Source: Acidobacteriota bacterium (GTDB lineage Bacteria > Acidobacteriota > Polarisedimenticolia > Gp22-AA2). From it: DNA of 64,000 nucleotides. Where the stretch lies: assembly GCA_018606725.1 (NCBI GenBank), contig JAGYID010000014.1, positions 1,895 through 65,894 of the forward strand, written 5' to 3'. A program made the translations under genes and the position numbers. The notes beneath the pieces were generated by a model. It was given only the letters and a program-made list of their open reading frames with translations, was not told where the DNA came from and did not search any database. Positions within the stretch are counted from its first letter, which is position 1. The number at the start of each line of letters is the position of its first letter. Of this stretch, positions 8,009-63,963 are shown piece after piece.

Positions 8009-8305
8009 ATGTCGGAAACCCCGGCAATTCGGTCGAGAATCAAGCAGCTCCTCGTGGATGCGCTCCACCTGGAGGGGCTCGCTCCCTCGAAGATCGCCGA
8101 CGACGCGCCGCTGTTCGGCGAAGGTCTCGGGCTCGATTCCGTGGACGCGCTGGAACTCGTGGTCGCTCTCGAGAAGGAGTTCGGGGTCCGGATCCAGAAC
8201 CACGAGGTCGGCAAAGAGGCGTTCGCCTCGGTCAGCGCCCTGGCGGCCTTCATCGACGGGCGCCTCGCCGCCGCGGGGAGCGCGAATGCCGGCAGCTCAT
8301 CCTGA
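8009..8305 (+). CDS. Acyl carrier protein.
   Basis: LGLDSVDALELV phosphopantetheine-attachment motif (Ser in DSV). Its 3' end overlaps the KS start by 20 nt. Confidence 0.8.
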   Translation: MSETPAIRSRIKQLLVDALHLEGLAPSKIADDAPLFGEGLGLDSVDALELVVALEKEFGVRIQNHEVGKEAFASVSALAAFIDGRLAAAGSANAGSSS

Positions 8306-9554: not shown

Positions 9555-9558
9555 GACG

Positions 9559-11501: not shown

Positions 11502-11512
11502 GAGCGTGGCCG

Positions 11513-13643: not shown

Positions 13644-13652
13644 GGGCGGATT

Positions 13653-14678: not shown

Positions 14679-14687
14679 TATTGATTC

Positions 14688-15665: not shown

Positions 15666-15736
15666 GCGGCGTTCCCTCCAGCGCCGCGGCGGGTCGCGGC
15701 AAACGGCGGCATTCTATCATCCGGCGGGCGGTTACA

Positions 15737-19242: not shown

Positions 19243-19338
19243 GAACCTGGATTCTATCGAATCCCGGGCGGATTCGAACTTCGGCGGCCGGTTGATCGGG
19301 GCCCTGATAGAATTCCCTGGCCGCAAGGAGAATGCTTG

Positions 19339-20670: not shown

Positions 20671-21222
20671 ATGCCCGAAAAGCCGTTCCTGACAGACATC
20701 AAGACCTTGAGACAGCGGGCGCGCCAGCACATCGAGAAGGGGGCCGTGACGCCCGGGTACCAGGCCGACCTGGCGACCGTCGTCCGCATCCTGAACGAGG
20801 CTCTCGCCACCGAGATCGTCTGCGTCCTCCGGTACAGGCGCCATTACTTCATGGCGAGCGGAATCAACGCCCAGAGCGTCGCCCAGGAGTTCCTCGAGCA
20901 CTCCAACGAGGAGCAGGCGCACGCGGATCAGATCGCGCAGCGGATCGTGCAGCTGGGCGGAGAGCCGAACCTGTCTCCGGAGGGCCTCCTGACGCGCAGT
21001 CACGCGGAGTATGTCGAAGGGGACTCCCTCATCGACATGATCAAGGAGGACCTGGTCGCCGAACGGGTCGCCATCGACAGCTATCGCGAGATGATCGCGT
21101 ACCTCGGACATGATGACCCCACCACGGTCAGGATGCTCGAGGGAATCCTCGCCATGGAGGAGACGCACGCGGAGGATCTCGTCAGTCTCCTGGAAAAACT
21201 GGGGACATCGGGCCCCCGCTGA
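20671..21222 (+). CDS. Ferritin-like (bacterioferritin/Dps-superfamily) di-iron protein.
   Basis: GGAGA RBS. Four-helix-bundle ferritin-like sequence with E/H metal ligands (EHSNEEQAHAD, EETHAEDL). Confidence 0.7.
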   Translation: MPEKPFLTDIKTLRQRARQHIEKGAVTPGYQADLATVVRILNEALATEIVCVLRYRRHYFMASGINAQSVAQEFLEHSNEEQAHADQIAQRIVQLGGEPNLSPEGLLTRSHAEYVEGDSLIDMIKEDLVAERVAIDSYREMIAYLGHDDPTTVRMLEGILAMEETHAEDLVSLLEKLGTSGPR

Positions 21223-32619: not shown

Positions 32620-33279
32620 ATGGCACTGCGTATTGGAGACGAGGCCCCCGAGTTCACGGCCCAAACCACCCAGGGAACCATCAACTTCCACCAGTGGATC
32701 GGCGACGGATACGCCATCCTGTTCTCGCATCCGAAGGACTTCACGCCGGTCTGCACGACCGAGCTCGGTTACATGGCCGGCCTGAAGCCGGAGTTCGACA
32801 AGCGCAACTGCAAGATCATCGGGCTGAGCATCGACTCGGTCGAGGACCACACGCGCTGGTCCCGGGACATCGAGGAGAGCCAGGGGCACGCCGTCAACTA
32901 TCCGATGATCGGCGACTCGGATCTCAAGGTCGCCAAGCTCTACGACATGATCCACCCGAACGCCACCGGCGAGGCCAAGGGACGCACCGCCCAGGACAAC
33001 GCCACCATCCGCTCGGTGTTCATCGTCGGCCCCGACAAGAAGATCAAGGCGACGCTGACCTATCCGATGAGCACCGGCCGGAACTTCGACGAGGTCCTGC
33101 GTCTGCTCGACTCGATTCAGCTGACCGCCAAACACAAGGTCGCCACCCCGGTCAACTGGAAGCAGGGGCAGGACGTGATCATCGTGCCCGCGGTCAGCGA
33201 CGAAGAAGCCCGGCAAAAGTTCCCGGGCGGATGGAAGGCGCCGAAGCCGTACATCCGCACGGTGCCGCAGCCGAGGTAG
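32620..33279 (+). CDS. 1-Cys peroxiredoxin (Prx6 subfamily).
   Basis: FTPVCTTE peroxidatic-Cys motif and Prx6-type C-terminal extension. Confidence 0.85.
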   Translation: MALRIGDEAPEFTAQTTQGTINFHQWIGDGYAILFSHPKDFTPVCTTELGYMAGLKPEFDKRNCKIIGLSIDSVEDHTRWSRDIEESQGHAVNYPMIGDSDLKVAKLYDMIHPNATGEAKGRTAQDNATIRSVFIVGPDKKIKATLTYPMSTGRNFDEVLRLLDSIQLTAKHKVATPVNWKQGQDVIIVPAVSDEEARQKFPGGWKAPKPYIRTVPQPR

Positions 33280-45378: not shown

Positions 45379-47955
45379 ATGAGGTCATCGAGACAGGAGA
45401 GGACTGTCCGCAGGCGGGGCCCCGGCGCGATCGTTGGAGCGATCGTGTCGCTTTTGGCCATGTCGCTGTTCGCCCCGCGCGCGGAGGCGGAGATCAGGAA
45501 GGGCAACGTCACCATCAAGCTCGAGACGGTGGCCGCGGGGCTGACCGGTCCGGAGCACCTGACGCACGCCGGCGACGGCTCCGGGCGGCTGTTCATCGTA
45601 GACCAGGCCGGCCAGATCCGGATCGTCAAGAACGGTGTTCTGTTGTCGCGGCCATTCCTCGATCTGACCGCGCTGCTGCCGGCCCTCAACCCGGGGTTCG
45701 ACGAGCGCGGCCTGCTGGGGCTGGCGTTTCATCCGGATTACGTCCACAACGGGCGCTTCTTCGTGCGCTACAGCGCGCCGCGCGCCGGGTCTGCGGGCGA
45801 GCCGTGCTTCGGCACCACCCGCGGCTGCCACGAGGAGATCCTGGCCGAGTTCGGCGTCTCGTCCGACCCGGACCTCGCCAACCCGGGCGGCCGGATCCTG
45901 TTCCGCGTCGACAAGCCGCAGTTCAACCACAACTCCGGCACGGTGGCGTTCGGACCGGACGGCTTCCTGTACTTCACGCTGGGGGACGGCGGCGGCGCCA
46001 ACGACGGACTGGCGGACAACCCGCCGTCGCACGGGCCGTTCGGCAACGCCCAGAACATCGAGGTGCCCCTCGGAAAGATCCTGCGTCTCGACGTCGACAG
46101 CCCGCCGCAGGCGCCGCGGCCGTACGCCACCCCGGCGGACAACCCGTTCCTCGGCCGGGACGGTCTCGACGAGATTTACGCCTACGGGCTGCGCAACCCG
46201 TTCCGTTTCGCGTTCGATGACGGCCCCGGCGGTGACGGCACTTTGTGGCTCGCCGACGTCGGCCAGAACCTGTTCGAAGAGGTCGACACGATCGTCAATG
46301 GCGGCAACTACGGCTGGGTGATCCGGGAAGGATCGCATTGCTTCGATCCGTTCAATCCCCTGACCCCGCCGGCGAGCTGCAGCTCCACGGGTGCGTTCGG
46401 CGAGCCGTTCATCGAGCCGATCGTCGACTATTCACACGCCGAGGGGGGCATCTCGGTCATCGGCGGCTACGTGTACCGGGGCACGCGCTCGCCCGACCTC
46501 ACCGGGAAGTACGTGTTCGGCGATTTCAGTGCCAGCTTCGGAGCGCCCGGCGGCCGTCTCTACTTCCTCGAGCGCCCGGACCCCGACAGCTTCGCGATAC
46601 GCGAGTTCGTCAACGGCCCGGGCGATCGTCCGTACGGACTGTTCCTCAAGGGGTTCGGCGAGGACCAGGACCGGGAGGTGTACGCGCTCGGGTCGACCGC
46701 GCTGGCGCCGACCGGCAACACCGGGGTCGTGCAGCGGATCGTCGAAGTGGTCAACCCCGTCCTCGACATCAAACCGGGCAGCTGTCCGGCGCGGCTGAAC
46801 GGAGTCGCCCGGGGGGTCCTGCCGATGGCGCTTCTCGGAACTCCGGGCTTCGACGTCAACACCATCGACACAGCGACGCTGCGTCTGACCCGCGGCGGCT
46901 CGATCGTGGCGTTCACTGCCACGATCGACGGCGCCCAGGCCGGCACCGGCAGCACGGCGACCGGTCACGGCTCGGCGACGCTCGACACCGCCAGTAATCT
47001 GCTGTGCACCGATGTCAGGTTCTCCGGACTGCTGGGCACGCAGACGAACCAGCACTATCACGGGCCGGCCACGCGAGCCGACAACGCGTCGGTCATCATC
47101 CAGCTCCCGGGACCGGGGAACTTCACGAACTACTGCACGACGATCAGCGACGCGAACGAGCGGACCCTGCTCGCCGGTTTGTCCTACATCAACATCCACT
47201 CGACCCGGAACCCTGGCGGCGAGATCAGGGGGCAGGTCCTGCCGGCCTCGGTCGCGCCGGTCCGCGTCCATGTCGAGGACGTCGGGACGCCATCCGGCGA
47301 AGGGGCGTGCGGCTGCCAGGGATCGGAGCCCGACGGCATCCCGGACCTCGTCCTGCAGTTCGACAACCAGGAGGTCTTCTCCGCCCTCAGGCTGCGCTCC
47401 GGGGGCGACGCCCCGGACACCCTCGCGGTCAGTGGCCACCGGCTGCCCCGGACCGGCTCCGGCCCGACGCGGTTCGAGTTCGACATGGACGGCTCGCAGG
47501 AGGTTCCGCCCAACATCTCGCTCGGCCGCGCGGCGTGCGGCGTCACGCTCGACGAGGCGACCGGCAATGTCAGCGTCGGGTGCACTTACGAAGGGATGAC
47601 CGGCATCACCGCCGCGGCGCACATCCACGGCCTGGCGCAGCCCGGCGTCAACGCGTCGGTGATCGTCCCGCTCACCGAGATCGGCGACCGCTCCGGCACC
47701 ATCACCGGCGGCGGCACCCTGACCCCCGCCCAGGTCCAGGGGATGCTCGACGGCCTGACCTACGTCAACCTGCACACCGACTTCAAGCCGGGCGGCGAGA
47801 TTCGCGGGCAGATCGCCGGCGGCGAGAAATTCGGCGCCAGCGACTGCGTCCAGGTGATCCGGTCGCCCGAGTCCAGGGCGCGGACGACGATGCGCCCGGC
47901 CGCGACCGGCGCGCCGACGGTCCGCCGGCGGCCGACCTCGAGCGGCCCTCGATGA
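45379..47955 (+). CDS. Secreted PQQ-dependent soluble sugar dehydrogenase (GSDH/YliI beta-propeller family) with two C-terminal CHRD domains.
   Basis: Signal peptide, GSDH-like propeller motifs (HNSGTVAFGPDGFLYFTLGDGG, YAYGLRNPFRFAFD), then two CHRD-like repeats (HIHSTRNPGGEIRGQV and NLHTDFKPGGEIRGQI). Confidence 0.8.
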   Translation: MRSSRQERTVRRRGPGAIVGAIVSLLAMSLFAPRAEAEIRKGNVTIKLETVAAGLTGPEHLTHAGDGSGRLFIVDQAGQIRIVKNGVLLSRPFLDLTALLPALNPGFDERGLLGLAFHPDYVHNGRFFVRYSAPRAGSAGEPCFGTTRGCHEEILAEFGVSSDPDLANPGGRILFRVDKPQFNHNSGTVAFGPDGFLYFTLGDGGGANDGLADNPPSHGPFGNAQNIEVPLGKILRLDVDSPPQAPRPYATPADNPFLGRDGLDEIYAYGLRNPFRFAFDDGPGGDGTLWLADVGQNLFEEVDTIVNGGNYGWVIREGSHCFDPFNPLTPPASCSSTGAFGEPFIEPIVDYSHAEGGISVIGGYVYRGTRSPDLTGKYVFGDFSASFGAPGGRLYFLERPDPDSFAIREFVNGPGDRPYGLFLKGFGEDQDREVYALGSTALAPTGNTGVVQRIVEVVNPVLDIKPGSCPARLNGVARGVLPMALLGTPGFDVNTIDTATLRLTRGGSIVAFTATIDGAQAGTGSTATGHGSATLDTASNLLCTDVRFSGLLGTQTNQHYHGPATRADNASVIIQLPGPGNFTNYCTTISDANERTLLAGLSYINIHSTRNPGGEIRGQVLPASVAPVRVHVEDVGTPSGEGACGCQGSEPDGIPDLVLQFDNQEVFSALRLRSGGDAPDTLAVSGHRLPRTGSGPTRFEFDMDGSQEVPPNISLGRAACGVTLDEATGNVSVGCTYEGMTGITAAAHIHGLAQPGVNASVIVPLTEIGDRSGTITGGGTLTPAQVQGMLDGLTYVNLHTDFKPGGEIRGQIAGGEKFGASDCVQVIRSPESRARTTMRPAATGAPTVRRRPTSSGPR

Positions 47956-49031
47956 ACAACCGACGCCGGGGGCGGCTCGCGGCCCCCGCCGCCGTGATGA
48001 TCGCGGTCGTTATCGTCATGACGATCGCGCTCGTCACGCCGCGGGCCGCCTTCGGCGCCTTCGTGACGATGGGGGCCTCCAGGGACAACACGCTGATCGA
48101 GAACGCCACCGGGGCGTTCAGCGACGGCGCCGGACCGAGTTTCTTCGTCGGCAGGGTCGATGTCATCAGCGGCGGACTCAAACGGCGCGGGGTGATCGCC
48201 TTCAACGTCGCCGGCGGAATCCCGGCCGGCTCGACCATCGTCAGCGTCAGCCTGCGCCTCAACATGTCCAGGTCGACCACGGCGCTGCAGTCGGTGTCCC
48301 TCCACCGGCTGCTGTCCGATTGGGGCGAGGGCACGTCGGTCGCGACCGGCGGGGGCGGCGGCGGGGCGCCATCGACGGCAAACGACGCGACCTGGATCCA
48401 CACCTTCTACAACACCCTCCTCTGGGCGATTCCCGGCGGCGATTACACTGGCACGCCCAGCACCACGATCCAGGTCGGCCCGGTCGGTCAATACACCTTC
48501 CTGTCGACGCCCGGGATGGTGGCCGACGTCCAGGCCTGGCTGGACACCCCGGCGCGGAGCTTCGGCTGGATCGTCATCGGCAACGAGGCGGTCATCGCCA
48601 CCGCGAAACGCTTCGACACCAAGGAGAATCCCCTCGCCGCCGCGCGGCCGATGCTGACGGTCGAGTACGCCGCCGCCGTGCCCCCGGCGGGACGGGTCCC
48701 CGAGGGAGGCACGGCGGGGCCGCCGCTCACCGTCGTGAGCGCCGGTGCCGGCACTCTTCGGCTGAGCTGGGGCGGCTCCTGTCTTTCGACCGACACCGAT
48801 TACGAGATCTATGCGGGGACCATCGGAACCTTCTCCAGCTACGCGCCGCTCACCTGCAGCACCGCCGGGGCGACCGCGATGACCATCACCCCGGCGGCCG
48901 GGAGCCAGTTCTACCTCGTCGTGCCGCGCAACGCAGCGCGCGAAGGATCGTACGGCATCGACAGCCAGGGACGCGAGCGCCCCGCGGGGGCCGGCGCCTG
49001 CCTGCAACAGGCGATCGGCGCCTGTCCGTAG
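47952..49031 (+). CDS. Secreted DNRLRE-domain protein with a C-terminal FN3/Ig-like domain.
   Basis: ATGA overlap with the upstream gene. N-terminal TM/signal, then SRDNTLIEN (DNRLRE-type motif). Confidence 0.6.
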   Translation: MNNRRRGRLAAPAAVMIAVVIVMTIALVTPRAAFGAFVTMGASRDNTLIENATGAFSDGAGPSFFVGRVDVISGGLKRRGVIAFNVAGGIPAGSTIVSVSLRLNMSRSTTALQSVSLHRLLSDWGEGTSVATGGGGGGAPSTANDATWIHTFYNTLLWAIPGGDYTGTPSTTIQVGPVGQYTFLSTPGMVADVQAWLDTPARSFGWIVIGNEAVIATAKRFDTKENPLAAARPMLTVEYAAAVPPAGRVPEGGTAGPPLTVVSAGAGTLRLSWGGSCLSTDTDYEIYAGTIGTFSSYAPLTCSTAGATAMTITPAAGSQFYLVVPRNAAREGSYGIDSQGRERPAGAGACLQQAIGACP

Positions 49032-49054: not shown

Positions 49055-50107
49055 TCAGGCCGTGGCCCCGCCGCAGGAGGAGCCGGAGCCGGCGGTGCAG
49101 CCGTAGCAGTGGTTACCGGTGACGACGCGCCGGGCGTGCAGGACCGACGGGTCGAAGTCGCGGATGTGGGCCGGCGCGCCGTGGGCGAGGGTCAGGTCGA
49201 GCATCTGGTTGAAGTCGCAGTCGTACAGCCGCCCGTCCCATCCGACGGAGAGGGTATACCGGCACATTACCCCGGCGGCAGCCACCGGGTTGAAGGCGTT
49301 TACCAGCCGCTCCATGTACCCCTCGTAATTGCCGGAGCGGATCAGGAACTCGAGGAAGCGGCTGATCGGCATGTTGGTGATGGTGTACAGGTTGTTGAAG
49401 ACGATGCCGTGCTCGTGGGCCAGCCGCTGCCGGAAGTGCGCCTCCTGCGACGGCTGCGCCGGGGGCAGGAACGCGCCGACGGGATTGGTGACCAGGTTCA
49501 GGACGAGGCCGCTGCCGTCGCAGCCGTAGCCGAGACCGTTCAGAACCCGCAGAGCCTGGAGCGACTTATCGAAAACGCCGGCGCCGCGCTGGGCGTCGGT
49601 CTGCGACGGGACGACCGACGGGAGCGAGGCGACAATCTCGACGCGGTGCCGCGCCAGGAAGCCGCCGAGATCCCCCTGCGACGGCAGCAGCAGGACGCTC
49701 AGGTTGCAGCGGTCCATGACCCGCCGGCCGAGCCGCCGTGACTCCTCGACCAGGTAACGGAAGGCGGGGTTCAGCTCCGGCGCGCCGCCGGTGATGTCGA
49801 CCGCCGGGATGTCGGTGCGCGCCAGCGCCGCCATGCACGCCTCGGCCGTGGCCTGGGTCATGACCTCGGCGCGATCGGGCCCGGCGTCGACGTGGCAGTG
49901 GCCGCAGGTCTGGTTGCACAGCTTGCCGACGTTGATCTGGAACACCGTGATGCCGGTGGCCCGCAGCGGCGCGAGCCGGGCGCCGGCCAGCATCGCGTCG
50001 AAGCGCGGTTGGCCGTTGGGCGACTCCAGTAGGCGCACCTGCTCGCCCGGCGCGGCCAATGCGCTGCCGCGCGCCTTGAGGCTCCGGGTCGGAGGAGGCA
50101 CCGGCAT
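49055..50107 (-). CDS. arsS: Arsenosugar-biosynthesis radical SAM protein ArsS.
   Basis: CNQTCGHCH radical-SAM cluster motif and C-terminal Cys-rich tail (HCYGCTAGSGSSCGG), characteristic of the ArsS family. Confidence 0.75.
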   Translation of the reverse strand: MPVPPPTRSLKARGSALAAPGEQVRLLESPNGQPRFDAMLAGARLAPLRATGITVFQINVGKLCNQTCGHCHVDAGPDRAEVMTQATAEACMAALARTDIPAVDITGGAPELNPAFRYLVEESRRLGRRVMDRCNLSVLLLPSQGDLGGFLARHRVEIVASLPSVVPSQTDAQRGAGVFDKSLQALRVLNGLGYGCDGSGLVLNLVTNPVGAFLPPAQPSQEAHFRQRLAHEHGIVFNNLYTITNMPISRFLEFLIRSGNYEGYMERLVNAFNPVAAAGVMCRYTLSVGWDGRLYDCDFNQMLDLTLAHGAPAHIRDFDPSVLHARRVVTGNHCYGCTAGSGSSCGGATA

Positions 50108-50111
50108 CTCC

Positions 50112-50444
50112 CTACATCGAGATTTTGGTGGCGACGTTCCGCATCTGCACGCCGTGCACGAGCGACGCACCTCCCCGGATGGCGCAGGTGACGTGCACCG
50201 CTTCGGTCATCTCCTCGACGCTGGACCCCTTCTCCAGGCAGGCCTGCGTGTAGGCGTCGATGCAGTACGGACACTGGACCGCGTGCGCCACCGCCAGCGC
50301 GATCAGCGCCTTCTCCCGCTCGGTCAGCGCCCCCTCGGCGAACACGGCGCCGTAGTAGGCCATGAACTTCTCCCACAACGCCGGGTTCCCCTTCCCCATG
50401 TCGGCGAAATGACCGAGATCCTTCGGGTGGTAATAGGTCTCCAT
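50112..50444 (-). CDS. Carboxymuconolactone-decarboxylase (CMD/AhpD)-family, arsenosugar-associated peroxidase-like protein.
   Basis: 110 aa with the CMD core AVAHAVQCPYCIDAYT. Sits 4 nt upstream of arsS on the same strand. Confidence 0.7.
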   Translation of the reverse strand: METYYHPKDLGHFADMGKGNPALWEKFMAYYGAVFAEGALTEREKALIALAVAHAVQCPYCIDAYTQACLEKGSSVEEMTEAVHVTCAIRGGASLVHGVQMRNVATKISM

Positions 50445-50640
50445 GATGCGCCTCCTCAATGCCGCGCCTCCTGAATGACGCGCCTCCTGACGCGGCGACG
50501 GGCCGGAACGGCTGGACGATGCCGGGAACGCCGCGCAGCGTATCACCGGCGGCGCCGGCCGTCGAGGCTGGCCCGCGGTCCTGCTCCGCGTACTCCGGAC
50601 TCCGGTCGGCATGCTCGCGCTCCTGTATAATCCCGCCCTC

Positions 50641-51561: not shown

Positions 51562-51677
51562 AAGCGCGGCCCGGCCGGGCCCCTCCTGACGCCCGGCCGC
51601 CCCATGCTAAGATTCGCTCCAATCGAACGGAACCTCGACACGCCGAGAAAAGGAGGCGCGCCGTGCGACACATTCTG

Positions 51678-53045
51678 ATGCCGATTTTCAGGGGACTTAA
51701 GACTGGCACTCGGGTGCGGGAACGGATGACCCGCGGAGCGGCGATCTTCGCCGCGGTTCTCTTCGCCGCGGGCCCGGCCGTGGCAGTTGCTGACGAAACG
51801 TGCATGTCGCCCTACATGGCCAAGATCACCTCGCAGGAGGACTTCGTCTACGTCTGGACCCTCGGCACGAAGGGGGTCGGCGACGAGTCCGACAAGCTGG
51901 TGACCATCGATGCGCGCCCCGGGTCGAAGACCTACGGCAAGGTGGTGAACACGCTGTCGGTCGGCGGGCGCAACGAGGCGCATCACGCCGGCTTCACCGA
52001 CGATCGGCGCTACCTCTGGGCCAGCGGTCTCGACACCAGCAAAATCTTCGTATTCGACGTCGCCACCGATCCGGCCCGGCCGCGGCTGCACAAGACGATC
52101 GCCGACTTCGTCGCCAAGACGGGCGGGGTCGTCGGGCCGCACTCCCTGTACGCCCTCCCCGGGCGCATGCTGATGACCGGCCTGTCGAACGACAAGGACC
52201 ATGGCGGCCGCACCGCGCTCGTGGAGTACGGCAATCAGGGCGCCTACATCGCCACCCACTGGATGCCGACGGCCGCCGATCCGCGCGGCGCCGCCATCGA
52301 GAAGGTCGCCGACGGCTACGGCTACGACGCGCGCGTCCTGCCGCGCCGCAACGTCATGCTGACCTCGTCGTTCACCGGCTGGTCGAACTACATGATGGAC
52401 TTCGGCAAGATGTTGCAGGACCCCGAGGCGATGAAGCGCTTCGGCCAGACGGTCGTGGTCTGGGACCTGCACGCCCGCAAGCCGCTGAAGGTCCTCGACG
52501 TGCCGGGATCGCCGCTCGAGATTCGCTTCGCCTGGGGGGCGAGGCACAACTACGCCTTCACCAGCAGCGCCCTCACCTCCAAACTGTGGCTCATCCACGA
52601 AGACAGCCCGAACGTCTGGAAGGCGCAGGCGGTCGCCGACATCGCCGACCCGTCGAAGGTCCCGCTGCCGGTCGACATCAGCCTGAGCGCCGACGACAAA
52701 AGCCTGTGGGTCGACACCTTCATGGACGGCATGGCGCGGTTGTTCGACGTCAGCGACCCGTTCCATCCGAAGCAGGTGTACGAGAAGAAGATCGGCGCGC
52801 AGCTCAACATGGTGTCGCAGAGCTGGGACGGGGCGCGCGTCTACTTCACCTCCTCGCTGCTGGCGAACTGGGACAAGAAGGGTCAGGACGACGAGCAGTT
52901 CCTGAAGGCCTACGCCTGGGACGGCAAGGAGCTGACCGAGAAGTTCGCCGTCGACTTCTACGCCGAGAAGCTCGGCCGCCCGCACATCATGCACTTCGGC
53001 GCCTACAGCCTGTACGGCAAGACCGGCATCGCGGCGGGCAAGTAG
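51678..53045 (+). CDS. Selenium-binding protein (SBP56 family; methanethiol-oxidase-like), exported.
   Basis: Signal peptide, then SBP56 homology over the whole length (HHAGFTDDRRYLWASGL..., C-terminal HFGAYSLYGK). Confidence 0.8.
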   Translation: MPIFRGLKTGTRVRERMTRGAAIFAAVLFAAGPAVAVADETCMSPYMAKITSQEDFVYVWTLGTKGVGDESDKLVTIDARPGSKTYGKVVNTLSVGGRNEAHHAGFTDDRRYLWASGLDTSKIFVFDVATDPARPRLHKTIADFVAKTGGVVGPHSLYALPGRMLMTGLSNDKDHGGRTALVEYGNQGAYIATHWMPTAADPRGAAIEKVADGYGYDARVLPRRNVMLTSSFTGWSNYMMDFGKMLQDPEAMKRFGQTVVVWDLHARKPLKVLDVPGSPLEIRFAWGARHNYAFTSSALTSKLWLIHEDSPNVWKAQAVADIADPSKVPLPVDISLSADDKSLWVDTFMDGMARLFDVSDPFHPKQVYEKKIGAQLNMVSQSWDGARVYFTSSLLANWDKKGQDDEQFLKAYAWDGKELTEKFAVDFYAEKLGRPHIMHFGAYSLYGKTGIAAGK

Positions 53046-53231
53046 CTGGTCCGCGCCCGCCTCGTTCCGCCGACAGGGGCCTTTCTCCTGTCGCTGGCGC
53101 TCGCCTGCGCCGGCCTGCTGGAGCCGGCGGCATCCGGAGCGGCGGCGCCAGCCGGAGCGCCGCCGCCGGCCGATCAAGAAGCCGCCGCGCGGGATGACGC
53201 CGCCGAGGCTCCGCCCGCCGGGCTGGAATAC

Positions 53232-54905
53232 GTGCCGCCGGCGCCGGGGAGCTATGCGCTGCCACCGATCCAGCCGGCGGCAGACGGCGCGGTGATCGAC
53301 GCCGACGGAACGCCGCGCCGGCTGTTCGACTACCTCGGCGATCGCGACATCCTGCTCAGCTTCGTGTACACGCGCTGCACCGACACCGAAGGCTGCCCGC
53401 TCGCGACCGGCGTCCTGGAGATGGTCCGCGAGGGGCTCGCGAAGGATCCGGAGCTGGCGGCGATGGTGCGTCTGGTGACCCTGAGCTTCGACCCGGAGCG
53501 CGACAGCCCGGGCGCCATGCGCCGCTATGCCCTGCACGCCGGCGGCATCGACCCCGGCACCCGCTGGAACGAGCGGCCGTGGGTCTTTCTCACCACCGCG
53601 TCCAGGGCCCGGCTGCAGCCGATCCTCGACGGCTACGGGCAGTCGGTGGTGCGAGAGCTCGACGCCGCCGGCCGGCCGACCGGTGATTTCACCCACGTGC
53701 TCAAGGTCTTCCTCATCGATCGCCGGAAGCGGGTGCGCAACATCTACAGCACCAGCTTCCTGCACCCGGCGATCGCCCTCAACGACCTCAAGACCCTGGC
53801 GCTGGAGGAGGTCGACCCGCGGGCGCTCGGGCGCGTCCGGCATCCGCCGCGCGGCCTGCCGCCGGTGCCGCTGCCGGCGGACGACCCACCGACGATCCCG
53901 AAGCTCCGCCTCGGGCGGAAGCTGTTCCTCGACCGGCGCCTGTCGCGCAACGGCACCCTGTCCTGCGCCATGTGCCACGTGCCGGAGCAGGGCTTCGCCG
54001 TCAACGAGACCCGCACGGCCGTGGGCTTCGAGGGCCGGACGCTGCGCCGCAACGCCCCGACCCTGCTCAACGTGGCGTACGCCGCGCCGTTTTTCCACGA
54101 CGGCCGCGAGCCGGCGCTGGAGATGCAGCCGTTCGACGTGTTTCTCAATCCCGATGAGATGGCGGCGCCGTCGCTGGGCGCCCTGGTGGAGACGGTCCGG
54201 TCATTGCCGGACTACGCGCCGCTGTTCGAGGCGGCCTTCCGCGCCCAGCCGGGCGTCGAGGCCATCGGCCGGTCGATCGCCGCCTACCTGCGCACCCTGC
54301 TGTCGGCGAACTCGCCGTTCGATCGCTGGCGCTTCGGCAAGGACGGGGCGGCGCTGGGCGCCGCGGCGCAGCGCGGCTTCGCGCTGTTCACCGGCCGGGG
54401 CCGCTGCGCGTCGTGCCACCGCATCGGCGACGATGCAGCCCTGTTCACCGATCACCAGTTTCACGACACCGGAGTGGCGTGGTTCGCCGCCGAGACCCGG
54501 CGGACGGAGACCGGGCCGGTGACCGTGCAGCTCGCCCCGGGCGTGACGGCGCCGCTGTCGCGCGCGGCGGTCGACAGCGTCGGCGGGCCGGCGGCGAACG
54601 ACCTGGGTCGTTACGAGGCGACCGGCGATCCGGCCGATCGGTTCCGCATCAAGACGCCGACGCTGCGGAATGTCGCGCTCACCGCGCCGTACATGCACGA
54701 CGGGTCGCTGTCGACGCTGCGGGAGGTGGTGGAGTTCTACGACCGCGGAGCGCGCCCGCACGAGGGCCTCGATCCGATCCTGAAGCCGCTCGACCTTCGG
54801 GAGGGCGAGGTCGACGATTTGGTGACGTTCCTGGAGAGCCTCACCGGCGACAACATCGACGAGCTGGTCCGCGACGCGCGCAGCGAGGCGGTGGGAAATC
54901 CGTGA
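53232..54905 (+). CDS. SCO1/SenC-like thioredoxin-fold domain fused to a di-haem cytochrome c peroxidase (CCP/MauG family).
   Basis: SCO-like FVYTRCTDTEGCP motif, then two haem-binding sites CAMCH and CASCH and the CCP C-terminal PTLRNVALTAPYMHDGS. The true start may lie upstream, near 53046, giving a lipoprotein-type signal (LSLALAC) from a non-ATG codon. Confidence 0.75.
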   Translation: MPPAPGSYALPPIQPAADGAVIDADGTPRRLFDYLGDRDILLSFVYTRCTDTEGCPLATGVLEMVREGLAKDPELAAMVRLVTLSFDPERDSPGAMRRYALHAGGIDPGTRWNERPWVFLTTASRARLQPILDGYGQSVVRELDAAGRPTGDFTHVLKVFLIDRRKRVRNIYSTSFLHPAIALNDLKTLALEEVDPRALGRVRHPPRGLPPVPLPADDPPTIPKLRLGRKLFLDRRLSRNGTLSCAMCHVPEQGFAVNETRTAVGFEGRTLRRNAPTLLNVAYAAPFFHDGREPALEMQPFDVFLNPDEMAAPSLGALVETVRSLPDYAPLFEAAFRAQPGVEAIGRSIAAYLRTLLSANSPFDRWRFGKDGAALGAAAQRGFALFTGRGRCASCHRIGDDAALFTDHQFHDTGVAWFAAETRRTETGPVTVQLAPGVTAPLSRAAVDSVGGPAANDLGRYEATGDPADRFRIKTPTLRNVALTAPYMHDGSLSTLREVVEFYDRGARPHEGLDPILKPLDLREGEVDDLVTFLESLTGDNIDELVRDARSEAVGNP

Positions 54906-54944: not shown

Positions 54945-55499
54945 TCACTCCTTCGGCAGCGCGTCCGTCCTTGGCTCGAAGTCCGGCACCGTGCCGAGCC
55001 CTGCCGACACCAGGTTGGCGAACCGGGCCAGTCCGATGACCAGGATCGCCTCGAGAATCTGCTCGTCGGTGAAGCCATAGGTCCGCAGCCCCTCGACGTC
55101 GTCGCGGCTGGCCTTGGTCGCTTGGCGGTTCAGCTTCAGCGCGAAATTCAAGAGCGCTTTGTCGGCCACCGGCAGGTCGGTGTGCGCGTGGTCGACGGCG
55201 ATCTGCTCCGGCTTCGGCCCCTTCAGCCCCAGCATCTTGACGATCTCGCAGTGCGCCGTGACGCAGTATGTGCTGAGATTGGCGGCCGAGCAGACCAGGA
55301 AGATGTATTCCTTCTGCGCCCGCGACAGGGCGCCCTCCTGGATCAGGATGCTCCAGACCAGGCGCGTCTCCGCCTCGATCAGGTCGGGTCGCATCGTCTG
55401 GGCCCGGTAGAAGTTGGGGATGAACCCGAACTGCCGCCGCGCCTCCGCGAACGGCAGGAACTCGTTCTCGTCGAGCGGCACCTGGCGCAGGAAACTCAT
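54945..55499 (-). CDS. CMD/AhpD-family (carboxymuconolactone decarboxylase-like) redox protein.
   Basis: CMD core with YCVTAHCEIV (Cys/His motif). Sits 6 nt downstream of 6-Cys peptide paralogue 3. Confidence 0.7.
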   Translation of the reverse strand: MSFLRQVPLDENEFLPFAEARRQFGFIPNFYRAQTMRPDLIEAETRLVWSILIQEGALSRAQKEYIFLVCSAANLSTYCVTAHCEIVKMLGLKGPKPEQIAVDHAHTDLPVADKALLNFALKLNRQATKASRDDVEGLRTYGFTDEQILEAILVIGLARFANLVSAGLGTVPDFEPRTDALPKE

Positions 55500-55504
55500 C
55501 GGCG

Positions 55505-55777
55505 CTAGACGCAGGAGCCGGTCGAGCAGCTGCTCCCGTTGTACTTGTAGCAGTAGTACCCGACGAGCTTGCCGCAGTTGCTGTGACGGTGCCCGCCCGA
55601 CACGCATCCCTTGTCGTTGCACTGGACCTGCGCCTGGACGTCCGGCACCGCCAGCCCTGACAGCGCCGATAGATACGGCGACCCGCCCTGCCGCTCCCCG
55701 CCCAGGAACGCCGGCAGCGCCGCCAGCACGGCCAGCACCAGCAATCCGCGCAACGCAATCCTCACGGTTCTGCTCAT
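55505..55777 (-). CDS. Secreted 6-Cys peptide, paralogue 3 of 3 (90-aa precursor).
   Basis: GAGGAGG RBS. Signal peptide, SPYLSALSGLA segment, C-terminal CNDKGC...C...C...C...C. Confidence 0.6.
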   Translation of the reverse strand: MSRTVRIALRGLLVLAVLAALPAFLGGERQGGSPYLSALSGLAVPDVQAQVQCNDKGCVSGGHRHSNCGKLVGYYCYKYNGSSCSTGSCV

Positions 55778-57642: not shown

Positions 57643-59247
57643 TCAGGCGCGGGACGGCCGCCCGCGGCGGAAGTCATGGAGGATCTCGCGGGCGGCGTTG
57701 CGTCCCGGCGCGCCGGTCACGCCGCCGCCCGGGTGGGCGCCGGAGCCGCACAGATAGAGGTTGCGAATCGGCGTCCGGTAGCGGGCCCAGCCGGGCAGCG
57801 GGCGCATCGAGAACAGCTGGTCGAGCGCCATGTCGCCGTGACAGATGTTGCCGCCCGTGAGCCCGAAGGTCTCCTCGAAATCGAGCGGCGTCAGGATGTG
57901 CCGCTGCAGGATCGCGCCTTTGAGATTAGGCGCGTACTCGGCCAGGGTGTCGATCGCCAGGTCTCCGAGCTCCTCCTTCCGCGTTCGCCAGTCGCCTTCG
58001 GCCAGCCGGTAAGGGATGTACTTGATCGAGATCGACATCACGTGGCGGCCGGGCGGGGCGAGCGTCGGGTCGAGGAACGACGGGACCACCACGTCCAGAT
58101 AGGGCCGGCGCGACGGCCGCCCGGCACGGTAGTCGAGGAACGCCGCCTCGAGGTACTCGGGGTCGGCGCCGGCCACCTGGATGTTGCCGTGCAGATGCGG
58201 GCCGGCGCCGGGGAGCGCCGTGAAGTCGGGCGGCTCGGAGAGCGCCAGGTTGACCTTGCCGGAGTTGCCGTTGCAGCGCAGGGTCTCGATGCCGCGCACG
58301 AAGTCGTCCGGCAGGTTCGACCGCCCCACCAGCCCGAGGAAGGTCCGCTTCGGATCGGCATTGGAGGCGACGACCCGTCCGAGAACCTCCTCCCCGCCCT
58401 CGAGGACGACCCCGCGGGCGGCGCCGTTCCGCACCACGATGCGCTCGACCGCGGCGCCGGTCCGGATCTCGGCTCCGTGGGCGCGGGCCGCCGCGGCCAT
58501 CGCCCGGGTGATGCCGCCCATCCCGCCGCGGACGAAGCCCCACAGCCCGGGGGCGCCCATCGTCCCTCCTTCGTAGTAGTGCAGCAGCGGAAAGGCGGTG
58601 CCGGGCGTGCGCGGGCTGCCGTACACCCCGATGGTCCCGCCGGCGGCGATGCTGGCCTTGAGCTGGGGCGACTCGAACCACTCGTCGAGCAGGTCGGCGG
58701 CGCTCATGGTCATCACTTTGACGAGCAGCGCCCGGTCGGCGCCCGGCAGCGTCAGAAACCGGCGGCCGAGCCGCAGCAGTTCCAGCAATCCGCCCAGTCC
58801 GGGGCGGGCGATGTCCGGCGGCGTCTCGGCGAGCGTCGGGCGGATGAACTCCGCCAGCCGCGACATGGCGGCGCCGAACCGCGGGTAGGCCGCGGCGTCC
58901 TTCGGCGAGAAACGCGCGATCGCCGCCGCGTCCTCGTTCTCCCCCATCCCCAGCAGGAGATGGCGGCTGTCGGCGAACGGCGTGAACGATACCGGGCACG
59001 GCACGATGTCGAAGCCGTGCCGCCGCAGCTCGAGGTCGCGGATGATCTCCGGCCGCAGCAGGGTGCAGCAGTACGACGTCGTCGAGGCCTGGTAGCCGGG
59101 AAGAATCTCCTCGGTCACGCAGGCGCCGCCGACCAAGTACCGCCGCTCCAGCACCAGGACCGAGCGGCCGGCCCGGGCGAGATAACCGGCCGTCACCAGG
59201 CCGTTGTGACCGCCCCCGACGACGATCGCATCGTACGTCCGCGCCAT
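57643..59247 (-). CDS. Phytoene-desaturase-family (CrtI-like) FAD-dependent oxidoreductase.
   Basis: N-terminal dinucleotide-binding fold YDAIVVGGGHNGLVTAGYLARAG and CrtI-family length and C-terminus. Starts 18 nt after the upstream rSAM-STAS gene. Confidence 0.75.
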   Translation of the reverse strand: MARTYDAIVVGGGHNGLVTAGYLARAGRSVLVLERRYLVGGACVTEEILPGYQASTTSYCCTLLRPEIIRDLELRRHGFDIVPCPVSFTPFADSRHLLLGMGENEDAAAIARFSPKDAAAYPRFGAAMSRLAEFIRPTLAETPPDIARPGLGGLLELLRLGRRFLTLPGADRALLVKVMTMSAADLLDEWFESPQLKASIAAGGTIGVYGSPRTPGTAFPLLHYYEGGTMGAPGLWGFVRGGMGGITRAMAAAARAHGAEIRTGAAVERIVVRNGAARGVVLEGGEEVLGRVVASNADPKRTFLGLVGRSNLPDDFVRGIETLRCNGNSGKVNLALSEPPDFTALPGAGPHLHGNIQVAGADPEYLEAAFLDYRAGRPSRRPYLDVVVPSFLDPTLAPPGRHVMSISIKYIPYRLAEGDWRTRKEELGDLAIDTLAEYAPNLKGAILQRHILTPLDFEETFGLTGGNICHGDMALDQLFSMRPLPGWARYRTPIRNLYLCGSGAHPGGGVTGAPGRNAAREILHDFRRGRPSRA

Positions 59248-59264
59248 GGATGCCCGGACGGATT

Positions 59265-61226
59265 TCAGCGGTACAGCGCGAACAGGGTCGCCAGGGCGGC
59301 GACCTCGCCCGTCGGCGGCAGGGCGATGCGGACGCGCTCGCGATGAGCCTTCAGCCCCTCGGCGATCCGTTCCGCCGCACCGGGCTCGACGTGCAGCAGA
59401 CGGCGGAGATCGAGGATCAGCCGATCCTCGGTCCGCTTCAGGGCGTCGCGCAGGTCGGCGGCGAGCCTCTCCGCCCCCGCCGCAGCCAGGCGCCCCTTCA
59501 CCTGCACCCAGACCGTCGATTCGGGGCGCAGCTCCACGTCCACGCCGTGCGTCGCGGCCCGCAGGCGATCCCAGGCGCGCGCCGGCCGCGACTCCTCCGG
59601 CATGCGGAAGGTGTGCCGCATCGTCGGCGGGTGCTGGAACAGACCGAGCTTCAGGGTGAGCCCGGTCCAGGCGGCCATGCCGACGGCGGCGACCGACTGG
59701 AGACGCTCGGTCCAGGTGGGCGGCCCCAGCGTCCGGTGGATGCGCGCCTGGAGATCGGCGATCCACTTGCGGGCCCCGGCGCCCGGGCCGAGCGCCCGGC
59801 CGGCCAGGAAGATGGGATACGTCCTGCGAATCTCGGTCGCGAAGCGCGCCGCCTTGCCGCGCAGCAGGGGGCTGGGAGAATCCTTCAGCTTCAGGTATCC
59901 CAAGAGCCAGCTCTCGATCGATCGGAAGATGGAAGGTCCGAGCCGGTGGAAGTCCTCCCGGAAACAGCGGGCCTGGGCCGCCTGGATCTCCCCGGGCGTC
60001 ATGGTCGGGTGGGTCACCATCGCCGAGAACCCGGTGCAGTTGCGGTAGTACAGCTCGCGATCGTCCGCCAGCTCGCGGTGCATCAGCCCCTCGCTCATGA
60101 CGCGCTCGAAGAAAGGCGTCCCGGGGGTCGGTCCGTAGATCAGGAACTGGGACAGGGCCGGCTTGAGCGCCAGGAGACCCGACAGCTCCTCGTCGATGAT
60201 CGCCGGGGTCTGGTACGGCAGGCCCACGATCATCGACGCCAGGATGCCGATGCCGTGCTCGCGGAACTCCCTGAAGACCTCCTCGGCGGGTCGTCCCGAC
60301 TGCTTGGCGAATCCCGACCGGGTTCCCTCGTAGCCGATCCAGACACCGTCGATGCCCATCTCGAGAATTTCGGTGATGGTGTACTGGCTGATGGCGCGGA
60401 TGCTCGCGAACGCGAACACCGACAGGGGCACGCCGCCTTCCCGGACGCAATCGCGGAATTCCAGGGCGCGCTTCCGGTTGAGCAGGAAATCCTCATCGAG
60501 GATGACGATCGACATTCCCGGATCGACCTCGAGGTAGCGCTGCACCACCCGGTAGATGTCACGGCCCGTCGGCAGCAGGCGGATGTGCCGGCGCTTGAAG
60601 AAGTAGGACGTGCAGCAGAAATCGCAGCCGTTGGGGCACCCCAGGCCGGCGAACACCATGCCGGTGCGCGAGGCCTCCCTGCCGAACACCTTCATCCGGC
60701 TGACCATCAGCGGGTGGCCGTACGGCATCGGGATCTCCGGCTCGCCCAGCAGCCGCCGCATGAAACCGACCCCCTCCTCGCGGCAGATGTGATCGGAATA
60801 GGGCGCCAGGACCTCGTCGGAAAGGACGGTGCCGTACCCTCCGAGAATGATCGCGGACCGCGGCGCGTGGGTCCGGACGAGGGCGACGACCTCTTTCATC
60901 CGGTGAAAGGTCGCCAGCAGGAACGACACGCCGACGAAGTCGTACCCTTTCTTCAGCTCGCGGATGAGCTCCGCCCTGGTCGGATACTGCAGGACGGTGG
61001 CCGGCGCCTCGAGGTTCTCGGCGACGTATTCCAGCGAGAAATGCACGTGGGTGGCCCGGGGGCTGAACAGGCCCTGCGCGCGGGTCACCTGGCCGAACAA
61101 CAGCTCGTAGCCGACGCTGGGGCCGTCGCCGTGCGCCTCGCCCAGCGGCCGGCAGACGCTGGTCAGCAGGACTTTCTTCACGGCCCTTCCCATGGCCGGG
61201 TTCGCAGCGGCCCCACGCATTGTCAT
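59265..61226 (-). CDS. B12-binding-domain radical SAM protein with a C-terminal STAS (anti-sigma-antagonist-like) domain.
   Basis: B12-binding Rossmann region, CPNGCDFC radical SAM motif, and a C-terminal ~110 aa resembling STAS (VELRPESTVWVQVKGRL...LILDLRRLLHVEPGAAERI). The start could be the second Met (61193). Confidence 0.7.
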   Translation of the reverse strand: MTMRGAAANPAMGRAVKKVLLTSVCRPLGEAHGDGPSVGYELLFGQVTRAQGLFSPRATHVHFSLEYVAENLEAPATVLQYPTRAELIRELKKGYDFVGVSFLLATFHRMKEVVALVRTHAPRSAIILGGYGTVLSDEVLAPYSDHICREEGVGFMRRLLGEPEIPMPYGHPLMVSRMKVFGREASRTGMVFAGLGCPNGCDFCCTSYFFKRRHIRLLPTGRDIYRVVQRYLEVDPGMSIVILDEDFLLNRKRALEFRDCVREGGVPLSVFAFASIRAISQYTITEILEMGIDGVWIGYEGTRSGFAKQSGRPAEEVFREFREHGIGILASMIVGLPYQTPAIIDEELSGLLALKPALSQFLIYGPTPGTPFFERVMSEGLMHRELADDRELYYRNCTGFSAMVTHPTMTPGEIQAAQARCFREDFHRLGPSIFRSIESWLLGYLKLKDSPSPLLRGKAARFATEIRRTYPIFLAGRALGPGAGARKWIADLQARIHRTLGPPTWTERLQSVAAVGMAAWTGLTLKLGLFQHPPTMRHTFRMPEESRPARAWDRLRAATHGVDVELRPESTVWVQVKGRLAAAGAERLAADLRDALKRTEDRLILDLRRLLHVEPGAAERIAEGLKAHRERVRIALPPTGEVAALATLFALYR

Positions 61227-61418: not shown

Positions 61419-63128
61419 ATGGCGAAGATCGGCAATCTGATTTGCCTGACCCCGCGTGACTCGTACGTCGTCGACGAACCGATCCGCAAGCCCGGCTTGC
61501 TGGGGGGCCTCGAGCGCCGGATCGGTCCGTTCTTCCGCAGCCCCGGGATCGCCTTCCCCTACCTGATCGGCTTCCTGCGCAAGAACGGCATCCTCGACGC
61601 CGACACGCGCGTCGCCGTGCAGCACGACAAGATCGAGGGGCCGACATCGTTCGAGGACATCCTCGCCGACAAGGTCGAGCTCGGCCGCGGCGATCACGAC
61701 GTCCTGTTCGTCACCGCCTATACGAACTCGGCCCGCGAGGCGTATCGCCGGGCCCGCGAGGCGCGCGCCGCCTACGCCGCCGCCGGCAAGAATCTCACGG
61801 TCGTGTTCGGCGGGCCGCACGCCTCGGCGATGCCCGAGGAGGGAACGCGCCGCGGTCACGTCGATGCGACCGTCGCCGGCGAGGGCGAGTGGGCCGCTTC
61901 GGCGCTGCTCACCGACCTCAAGGAGGGGCGGCCGGTGAAACCGGTCTACAAGGCGACCTTCGATCGCATCCGCGATCGCGGTACGTTGGCCCTCGACATG
62001 GGGATCTGGGACGGGCTGACCCGCCGGCCGCAGCAGATCGTCTCCTCGACCACCCTGGCCCGCGGTTGCAAGCTGGACTGCCACTTCTGCGCCGTCTTCC
62101 TGACCAACGGCCCGACGGTGCGCAACCGCGACACAGCCGATGTCGTGGACGAGATCCGGGCCCAGGGCCCGCGTTACACCCGGGAGACGATCGACCGGAT
62201 TCCGCCGGGCTTCTACAACGCCATCCTCAAGGCGGCCGTCAAGCTGCCGATCGTCGGCCCGCGATACGGCGATCGCCTGATCGCCAAGATGGGGCCGGGC
62301 TTCACCGACAGTTACTTCTTCTGGGACGACAACCTGTACAACGCCGCCGGCTCCTTCCAGGCGCTGTGCGAGGCGATCCGCCCCGTCGGGCGCCAATGGG
62401 CGGCCGAGCTGACCATCGACCTGGCGGAGAAGCCGGAGCTTCTGAAGGCGGCCTACGACAGCGGCTGCCGCGATCTGTTCCTCGGCATCGAGTCGGTCAG
62501 CCAGACGGCGATTGACGGCCTCGACAAGTGGTCGAACAACACCGCCGGCATGCGCGAGATGGTTCAGCGCGTCCACGATGCCGGCATCAACGTCATGGGC
62601 GCCTTCGTCTTCGGGCTGGACGGCGACGACCCCTCCTGCTTCGACCGGACCCTCGAGTTCATCAATGCGACCGGGATCGACTTCATCGTCGCCAACATCA
62701 TCCAGCCCTACCCCGGCACCGGGACCTTCAAGGACGCGGTCGCCGGCGACGATCTGCTCCCCTGGACCCGCTGCCCCGACGACGCGGACGTCGCGATGGA
62801 TTACAACTGGCCGCTGTTCGACGGGGCGCACGTCCTGGTCCGCCCGAAGGCGATGACGATCGACCAGCTGCAGGAGGGCTATTACTACTTCCTGCGCGAA
62901 GCCTACTCGCTGACCGGCATCGTGCGCCGCTACCGCGGGCACGCCTACGATGTTCCCTGGGCGATCTCCCACTTCACGCGCAACTACCTGATGAGCCGCT
63001 ACGGCATGATCAAGACGGCCCACGCCATCCGCCGCAAGGGCGCCAAGCCGGTGGGGCTCGTCGTCGCCCCGGAGGACGGCCGGCGGGCACCCGAGCCCGG
63101 CTTCGTCCCGGAATCTTTCACCGGCTGA
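61419..63128 (+). CDS. B12-binding-domain radical SAM protein (class B rSAM).
   Basis: Divergent from 59265..61226. Rossmann-like B12 region and CKLDCHFC radical SAM motif. Confidence 0.75.
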   Translation: MAKIGNLICLTPRDSYVVDEPIRKPGLLGGLERRIGPFFRSPGIAFPYLIGFLRKNGILDADTRVAVQHDKIEGPTSFEDILADKVELGRGDHDVLFVTAYTNSAREAYRRAREARAAYAAAGKNLTVVFGGPHASAMPEEGTRRGHVDATVAGEGEWAASALLTDLKEGRPVKPVYKATFDRIRDRGTLALDMGIWDGLTRRPQQIVSSTTLARGCKLDCHFCAVFLTNGPTVRNRDTADVVDEIRAQGPRYTRETIDRIPPGFYNAILKAAVKLPIVGPRYGDRLIAKMGPGFTDSYFFWDDNLYNAAGSFQALCEAIRPVGRQWAAELTIDLAEKPELLKAAYDSGCRDLFLGIESVSQTAIDGLDKWSNNTAGMREMVQRVHDAGINVMGAFVFGLDGDDPSCFDRTLEFINATGIDFIVANIIQPYPGTGTFKDAVAGDDLLPWTRCPDDADVAMDYNWPLFDGAHVLVRPKAMTIDQLQEGYYYFLREAYSLTGIVRRYRGHAYDVPWAISHFTRNYLMSRYGMIKTAHAIRRKGAKPVGLVVAPEDGRRAPEPGFVPESFTG

Positions 63129-63189
63129 ACGTCCCGGAAGCCCTGTCTTGGCAGGGATCCGCGCCGGTGCCATAATCCGGCGCTCAGCC

Positions 63190-63963
63190 ATGAGCACGCG
63201 TCTCATCAATCAAAATGGGGTGTCTGTGTCCCGGCGCATCGCCGGCACGGCCGCCCTGCATCTTCTGGCGGCGGCCTCGCTGCTCCAGTCGGCCGCCTGC
63301 ACCGGCGGCCCGGGGAAGTCCGCCCCGCCGCCGATCATCCTGGCGACCACCACCAGCACCTACGACTCCGGCCTGCTCGACGACATCATCCCGCCCTTCG
63401 AGAAGGCCAGCGGCATGACGGTCAAGACGATCGTCGTCGGCTCGGGCAAGGCGCTGGCGCTTGGGGAGCGCGGCGAGGCCGATCTGCTGCTGGTGCACGC
63501 GCCCGAGGCGGAGGAGGGTTTCATGGCGCGCGGCGGCGGCATTCTGCGGCGCCGGATGATGTACAACGATTTCGTCCTGGTCGGCCCGGCGGCCGACCCG
63601 GCCGGGGTGGGCGGGGCCGCCGATCTGAAGGCGGCGATGACCGCGCTGCACCGTTCGGGCGCCGTCTTCGTGTCCCGCGGCGACGGTTCGGGAACGCAGG
63701 AGATGGAGCTCGATCTCTGGAAGCAGGCCGGTCTGTCGCACCCGGCGGAGGGCTACCTGGAGACCGGGCAGGGCATGGCTTCGACCCTGCGCGTCGCATC
63801 GGAGAAGCGCGGCTACACCCTGACCGATCGCTTCGGCCGGGAGCGCTTCGGGCAGGCGCTGTTCGTCCCCGATGCCGAGCCGTTCGAAGCCGCCGCGTCC
63901 ATCGCACCCGGCGCCGCGGATCCCCTTGCCGCTCCCGGAGGCCCCGATGCGCCTCATCGCTGA
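63190..63963 (+). CDS. tupA: TupA-like tungstate/molybdate ABC transporter substrate-binding protein.
   Basis: Lipoprotein signal with Cys, PBP_like_2 fold with the TupA-type TTTSTYDSGL anion-binding motif. Confidence 0.65.
   Translation: MSTRLINQNGVSVSRRIAGTAALHLLAAASLLQSAACTGGPGKSAPPPIILATTTSTYDSGLLDDIIPPFEKASGMTVKTIVVGSGKALALGERGEADLLLVHAPEAEEGFMARGGGILRRRMMYNDFVLVGPAADPAGVGGAADLKAAMTALHRSGAVFVSRGDGSGTQEMELDLWKQAGLSHPAEGYLETGQGMASTLRVASEKRGYTLTDRFGRERFGQALFVPDAEPFEAAASIAPGAADPLAAPGGPDAPHR

Follow-up and report, generated by a model that had tools for sequence, protein, structure and literature searches.

The CMD-ArsS pair

In a 64,000-nucleotide stretch of DNA from an Acidobacteriota bacterium (assembly GCA_018606725.1, contig JAGYID010000014.1), hereafter called the window, two adjacent genes on the minus strand belong to families associated with arsenosugar biosynthesis. 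The upstream gene encodes a small CMD/AhpD-like protein (50112..50444), and the downstream one, arsS (49055..50107), an enzyme of the radical S-adenosylmethionine (SAM) class with a Cys-rich DUF3641 domain. The two are separated by 4 nt, and the same gap is found in L089, a 91%-identical relative. The original prediction had recognized this two-gene operon, naming arsS from its CNQTCGHCH motif and its Cys-rich tail, and had assigned the companion to the CMD family. It had also proposed, for such a stand-alone pair lying beside selenium-binding and peroxide-detoxifying genes, a variant pathway for organoarsenic (or organoselenium) compounds. The identities and the operon have proved right. The variant pathway has not, and the locus is, as judged from its sequence, an intact and ordinary copy of a known cassette, both genes of which fall in curated, already named families.

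ArsS has 350 residues. It matches the NCBIfam family TIGR04167, named "arsenosugar biosynthesis radical SAM (seleno)protein ArsS", with 424.9 bits (cutoff 300) over profile positions 2-302 of 303, and Pfam DUF3641 with 180.6 bits, while the general Pfam model Radical_SAM gives 26.9 bits, under its cutoff of 29.5. Its reading frame begins with an ATG at 50107 or, alternatively, with a GTG at 50101, and ends with the TGA at 49055-49057. The GTG is better spaced than the ATG from a GGAG that overlaps the stop codon of the upstream gene.

For comparison, 80 related ArsS loci were taken from species-representative genomes, which makes 81 with the window. When the 81 proteins are aligned, 104 columns show conservation of 95% or more, and the window ArsS agrees at every one of them. 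Among them are nine Cys residues: C64, C68 and C71 of the CX3CX2C motif (CNQTCGHCH), which is kept in at least 95% of the 81 homologues, and six more, C91, C282, C297, C334, C337 and C345. The C-terminal tail, HCYGCTAGSGSSCGG, fits the pattern HC[YF]GCTAGxGSSCGG, in which few substitutions occur across the 80 relatives. The strongly conserved columns are common to ArsS proteins linked to the arsenite methyltransferase ArsM and to those encoded in a bare pair with the CMD partner; no active-site column differs in the window protein, and nothing in these columns suggests a change of substrate.

The ArsS family includes selenoprotein members (PMC13188914), and in-frame TGA codons in orthologues had been envisaged in the original prediction. 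Here the search came out empty. Codon 345 of the window gene is TGC (Cys), and the TGA five codons later, after GGATA, is the true stop. A selenocysteine form, with an in-frame TGA in a GxxU tail, is seen neither in the window ArsS nor in any of the 80 relatives, which all carry Cys; this part of the family thus has no selenoprotein form.

No solved structure of ArsS exists, and a sequence search of solved structures returned a generic radical SAM match only. An AlphaFold2 model (pLDDT 76.9, pTM 0.84), compared by Foldseek, is nearest to the SPASM/twitch radical SAM enzymes SkfB, BlsE, EpeE, SuiB, anSME and PqqE, at template-modeling (TM) scores of about 0.5. This likeness of the predicted fold fits a Cys-rich C-terminal accessory domain and adds nothing specific.

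The partner gene runs from the ATG at 50444 to the TAG at 50112-50114 and encodes 110 residues with a CPYC motif (C58/C61). Over its full length it matches NCBIfam TIGR04169, 'arsenosugar biosynthesis-associated peroxidase-like protein', with 193.2 bits (cutoff 120), and it scores 60.5 bits on Pfam CMD. An alignment of 59 partners has 40 columns with conservation of 95% or more; the window protein agrees at 39 of these, the stretch Q57-C-P-Y-C-I-D-A64 among them, and nothing sets it apart from other members of TIGR04169. The nearest solved structures are the small AhpD/CMD proteins 3bey, 7y4r and 5dik. The partner also matches the AhpD part of NF041537, an NCBIfam family of ArsM/AhpD-domain fusions, with 28.5 bits, where the cutoff for the whole protein is 510; this match may weakly tie AhpD-like domains to As(III) methyl chemistry.

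Arsenic genes in the window and in related loci

Is there an ArsM that could feed this operon? A hidden Markov model (HMM) was built from the ArsM-type methyltransferases that lie beside ArsS in related loci, the Bacteroidota representative of which NCBIfam places in NF038099 with 562.7 bits, and was run on all open reading frames (ORFs) of the window of at least 90 residues. Its sole match in the 64 kb, with 26 bits, is a class-I methyltransferase gene at 15737-16480, which reaches 26.3 bits on NF008823 (arsenite methyltransferase) against a cutoff of 263. A second class-I methyltransferase gene, at 11633-12691, matches no ArsM model. The absence of arsM from the window, as originally predicted, therefore stands. 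Family scans of most gene candidates in the window found no ArsR, Acr3, ArsB, ArsC, ArsH or ArsI, nor a glycosyltransferase of the arsenosugar type. HMMs for the TIGR04282 and TIGR04283 glycosyltransferases and for the purine nucleoside phosphorylase, made from related loci and with representatives confirmed by NCBIfam, had no match in the window either. Three B12-binding radical SAM genes were weighed as alternative As-methylases, and their family matches are weak and generic only. Since the window holds no further ars gene, the case for arsenic use in vivo is one of homology.

The surroundings of arsS were compared by calling and clustering the ORFs of the 80 related loci and by searching with an HMM for each recurrent neighbor. 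The partner gene lies immediately upstream of arsS in 59 of the 81 loci. Layouts were counted in the 35 loci that have at least 9 kb of flank on each side. The commonest is the bare CMD-ArsS pair (16/35), and in a further eight loci the pair is accompanied by a glycosyltransferase without ArsM; ArsM is found within 10 kb in nine, and two have ArsS without any of these genes. In other words, ArsM is not within 10 kb in 26 of the 35 well-flanked loci. Bare pairs come from a wide range of taxa: Acidobacteriota, Bryobacterales, Vicinamibacterales, Polyangia, Ktedonobacteria, Eisenbacteria, Elusimicrobiota, Acidimicrobiia, Melioribacteraceae and Desulfuromonadales. All-against-all clustering of ORFs from the 81 loci gave only generic ABC-ATPase and short-chain dehydrogenase/reductase (SDR) families as conserved neighbors of the bare pair.

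Linkage to ArsM is thus the exception among the sampled loci. A Nitrospira clade and some of the Bacteroidota account for it mainly, together with the single cyanobacterial plasmid that was inspected. The Nitrospira layout (L003-L022) lacks the CMD partner and has an ArsM-family gene adjoining arsS, accompanied in some loci by ArsR and a PiT-family transporter; the methyltransferase of this type scores 235 bits on NF008823, slightly below the cutoff of 263. Three of these loci (L015, L017 and L022) hold a second, shorter ArsM-like gene. In the Bacteroidota layout the pair is joined by varying sets of ArsM (NF038099), TIGR04282, TIGR04283 and the purine nucleoside phosphorylase. Outside the Bacteroidota, loci tend to have the CMD partner or an adjacent ArsM, one in place of the other: the Acidobacteriota loci that neighbor the Nitrospira clade have the partner and not ArsM.

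As the bare pair is the usual layout of the family, the missing ArsM beside the window pair is no sign of a new pathway, contrary to what had been proposed for it. The comparative result itself, ArsS-ArsM linkage as an exception among the sampled loci, is of modest value. It raises questions that are general rather than specific to the window. From where do organisms with a bare pair obtain their methylated arsenic? And what is the role of the partner protein?

Phylogenetic position and closest relatives

The original prediction had considered that the protein might group with radical SAM/Cys-rich proteins other than ArsS. On the contrary, it groups firmly with ArsS. A neighbor-joining tree from 305 aligned columns places it among sequences from Acidobacteriota and Nitrospirota, with the ArsM-linked Nitrospira clade branching beside it. 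The ArsS proteins of that clade, 70-75% identical, are the closest among species-representative genomes. Farther away, the window ArsS is 50% identical to an ArsS encoded on a Pseudanabaena plasmid, 1 kb from an ArsM that RefSeq annotates as belonging to arsenosugar biosynthesis. An exact-sequence search gave no record of the window ArsS itself; the partner protein turned up only on two contigs under 2 kb from the same organism, with identical DNA over about 220 aligned nt.

The five closest relatives examined are 80-91% identical, on contigs 3 to 50 kb long. Each is a bare pair with a 110-residue partner directly upstream; no ArsM was found on these contigs, and the neighborhoods are all different. 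The CMD-ArsS cassette behaves, as far as these arrangements indicate, as an autonomous two-gene module. Two methyltransferase genes on the relatives' contigs were considered as ArsM and rejected: the one at 14591-15172 of L083 scores 49.6 bits on NF008823 against the cutoff of 263, and the one at 7863-8618 of L086 matches no ArsM model.

Comparison with known systems

ArsS enzymes cleave SAM reductively at the [4Fe-4S] cluster of the CX3CX2C motif and add the 5'-deoxyadenosyl radical to the As of dimethylarsenite, DMAs(III). The reaction is redox-neutral, and its product, 5'-deoxy-5'-dimethylarsinoyl-adenosine, is the first committed intermediate of arsenosugars (PMC13598754; bioRxiv 10.64898/2026.04.29.721666). 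In Synechocystis, the substrate is supplied by a co-transcribed ArsM (bioRxiv 10.1101/2022.09.23.509062; PMC8552651). SsArsS of Synechocystis sp. PCC 6803 resembles the window protein in belonging to TIGR04167 and in having the CX3CX2C motif and the Cys-rich DUF3641 tail. However, the cyanobacterial arsS lacks a CMD partner and shares its transcript with arsM, whereas that of the window has a CMD partner and no arsM in 64 kb. The Nitrospira-type locus, with its ArsM-family gene and no CMD partner, is likewise the reverse of the window. The arsenosugar cluster of Bacteroidota has the CMD-ArsS core in common with it, while its ArsM, both glycosyltransferases and the phosphorylase are missing from the window. 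A C-As bond is also formed by the radical SAM enzyme ArsL, from arsinothricin biosynthesis (bioRxiv 10.64898/2026.04.29.721666; PMC8552651). Its family is a different one, and the radical it generates is 3-amino-3-carboxypropyl; no match to the ArsL model was obtained with the window ArsS.

Functional interpretation

The pair is probably the standard two-gene operon of the widespread ArsS/TIGR04169 cassette, with ArsS-type arsenic chemistry. Several observations argue for an ordinary cassette: both family scores lie far above their curated cutoffs; the 104 conserved columns of ArsS, its nine Cys and the CPYC of the partner are all kept; the tree places the window ArsS beside a clade whose arsS genes have ArsM-family genes, and some of them ArsR, as neighbors; half of its residues are shared with a cyanobacterial plasmid ArsS encoded near an arsenosugar ArsM; and the bare pair is the commonest layout. 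By homology with the characterized enzymes, the window ArsS would adenosylate DMAs(III). The co-translated partner, with its 110 residues and CPYC motif, would most likely be a thiol-disulfide oxidoreductase serving the chemistry of ArsS; it may keep the Cys-rich tail of ArsS reduced, or it may hold the arsenical, or hand it over, as a trivalent species bound to thiols. The methylated arsenic would come from an ArsM encoded outside the 64-kb window, or from methylarsenicals of neighboring microbes, an unlinked ArsM being the most likely source.

Some points weigh against this assignment. NCBIfam grades TIGR04169 only as 'hypoth_equivalog', and the window lacks ArsM, TIGR04282/TIGR04283, the purine nucleoside phosphorylase, ArsR and any other ars gene. 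Moreover, RefSeq applies the name "ArsS" to some proteins from contexts without ArsM or the CMD partner, for instance one on Burkholderia glumae plasmids that is 46.5% identical to that of the window. The family name may be broader than the one characterized reaction and may cover more than one substrate.

Could the cassette serve salvage or detoxification instead? Its host would then have no ArsM of its own, and the cassette would work on methylarsenicals from other microbes, the partner reducing DMAs(V) to DMAs(III) and ArsS turning this toxic species into a harmless adenosyl-arsenical. The 26 of 35 loci without ArsM within 10 kb, the 16 bare pairs and the lack of ArsM in the 64 kb would all agree with this, as would the redox-type CxxC motif of the partner and a neighborhood that differs by lineage, as for an autonomous module. 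Nevertheless, ArsM may simply be unlinked, the search having covered 64 kb only; no reductase activity is known for the partner; and in Bacteroidota the surroundings of the pair, with ArsM and the arsenosugar glycosyltransferases, are those of a biosynthetic pathway. We therefore regard salvage by the window organism as unlikely. The wider version of the idea is slightly more doubtful: that the bare cassette works across many soil phyla without any ArsM in the same genome, as a community-level salvage or detoxification in which the partner reduces imported dimethylarsenate and ArsS fixes the toxic trivalent product in an adenosyl-arsenical. If salvage did hold true, it would give the partner family a first function, that of a methylarsenate/dimethylarsenate reductase.

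Two other explanations start from the genes on the far side of the operon, and both appear very improbable. The pair might act on methylated selenium, on another metalloid or on sulfur species, together with the neighbor that the original prediction had called selenium-binding. Indeed, the pair adjoins an SBP56-family gene and several redox genes, and the ArsS family has its selenoprotein members. That SBP56 gene (51663-53045, plus strand) turns out, however, to be mtoX, for methanethiol oxidase, with 762.8 bits on NF052453 (cutoff 650), and it is followed by a gene at 53232-54905, on the same strand, whose domain matches are those of a fusion of SCO1/SenC with a MauG-type di-heme peroxidase (CCP_MauG). 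The arrangement mtoX-SCO1-mauG, fused versions included, is known for this copper-dependent enzyme of the sulfur cycle (Eyice et al. 2017, PMC5739008), and 51663-54905 is, by its gene content, a methanethiol oxidase operon of known type. The neighborhood consequently lends no support to a selenium link. Nor is the SBP56 context conserved beside ArsS elsewhere; the window ArsS and its 80 relatives carry Cys and not selenocysteine, and no active-site column distinguishes the window protein from ArsM-linked ArsS.

The other explanation makes the pair one unit with the divergent genes pirin, mtoX and SCO1/mauG, co-regulated from the 166-bp intergenic region (50445-50610) that the CMD-ArsS operon shares with pirin, and responding jointly to volatile methylated compounds of a chalcogen or pnictogen, or to peroxide. 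In the window, a divergently oriented pirin gene does lie upstream of the pair. L089 has one as well (its pirin is 83% identical), and so, independently, does L014, a Nitrospiraceae locus (only 28% identical). These are only two independent lineages, though, and pirin is found in no other locus, 80%-identical relatives included, while mtoX is beside ArsS in no other locus at all. Pirin, mtoX and SCO1/mauG are accordingly best read as a unit separate from the CMD-ArsS operon, predicted to serve methanethiol oxidation, and the ordinary cassette with ArsS-type arsenic chemistry stays the preferred reading of the pair.

The region upstream of the operon

Directly upstream of the partner ATG, a 16-nt unit occurs three times in tandem (50443..50490, minus strand), each copy with an AGGAGG that resembles a Shine-Dalgarno sequence. 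The three units read TCAGGAGGCGCGTCAT, TCAGGAGGCGCGGCAT and TGAGGAGGCGCATCATG, and Tandem Repeats Finder (TRF) reports a period of 16, 3.0 copies and a score of 75. L089 carries two copies, and relatives farther removed a single one; the ribosome-binding region seems to have been duplicated in tandem recently.

Farther upstream, at 50537..50545 on the minus strand, lies TGATACGCT, a motif like TGnTAnnCT. The motif is found upstream of the partner gene in five loci (the window, L089, L083, L084 and L086), and is put forward, with low confidence, as a possible -10 element of the operon. Scans of the operon surroundings for the sigma-70 consensus and for intrinsic terminators found nothing. Similarly, neither a riboswitch nor a structured leader was apparent in the sequence upstream, with no Rfam match and a fold z-score of +0.56.

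Neighboring genes

The pirin gene occupies 50611/50641-51561 on the plus strand, upstream of mtoX. A perfect TATAAT at 50626-50631, on the same strand and with TG directly before it, stands 9 nt ahead of the ATG at 50641. Because of this position, the gene may have its start at 50641, without a leader, and not at 50611, and the alignment with the pirin of L089 also favors a start downstream of 50611. Among the related loci, pirin is the only neighbor gene of the window that recurs beside ArsS.

Converging on the mtoX cluster is a gene for an AhpD-like "peroxidase-related enzyme" (54945-55622; TIGR01926, 102 bits). It is one of three scattered oxidative-stress genes, at 20671-21222, 32620-33279 and 54945-55622, for a Dps/ferritin-like protein, a 1-Cys peroxiredoxin and this AhpD-like protein; they may be the source of the impression of peroxide-detoxifying neighbors in the original prediction. 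On the other side of the operon, 45379-49031 (plus strand) encodes an 858-residue secreted protein with a glucose/sorbosone dehydrogenase beta-propeller and two CHRD domains, and then a DNRLRE-domain protein, whose gene converges on arsS and ends 23 nt from the arsS stop codon.

The three B12-binding radical SAM genes lie at 24828-26306 (+), 59265-61226 (-) and 61419-63128 (+), two of them mutually divergent, with weak matches to HpnR (119 bits), HpnJ (46-69 bits) and PhpK-type models (26-52 bits). Close to them are a CrtO/CrtI-like desaturase gene (57643-59247) and a gene for a TupA-like solute-binding protein (63148-63963; 154 bits, below the cutoff).

The two class-I methyltransferase genes mentioned above belong to a cluster at 8009-20025 that resembles an aryl-polyene or xanthomonadin-type pigment locus. 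Besides these two, the cluster holds genes for an acyl carrier protein, a ketosynthase, a second ketosynthase-domain protein, a ketoreductase and an LpxL-like acyltransferase, together with an FkbO/Hyg5 chorismatase (227.5 bits, below the cutoff of 325), a PHP-domain protein, a LolA-like protein and a MacB-type ABC exporter.

Outside the window, the plasmid copies of arsS in Burkholderia glumae (NZ_CP100267.1, L091) have as neighbors genes for thioredoxin, CcdA, a further radical SAM protein and a DUF547 protein. A plasmid of Hymenobacter volaticus (L092) also carries a gene annotated as arsS, and DUF547 recurs near ArsS in Hymenobacter loci.

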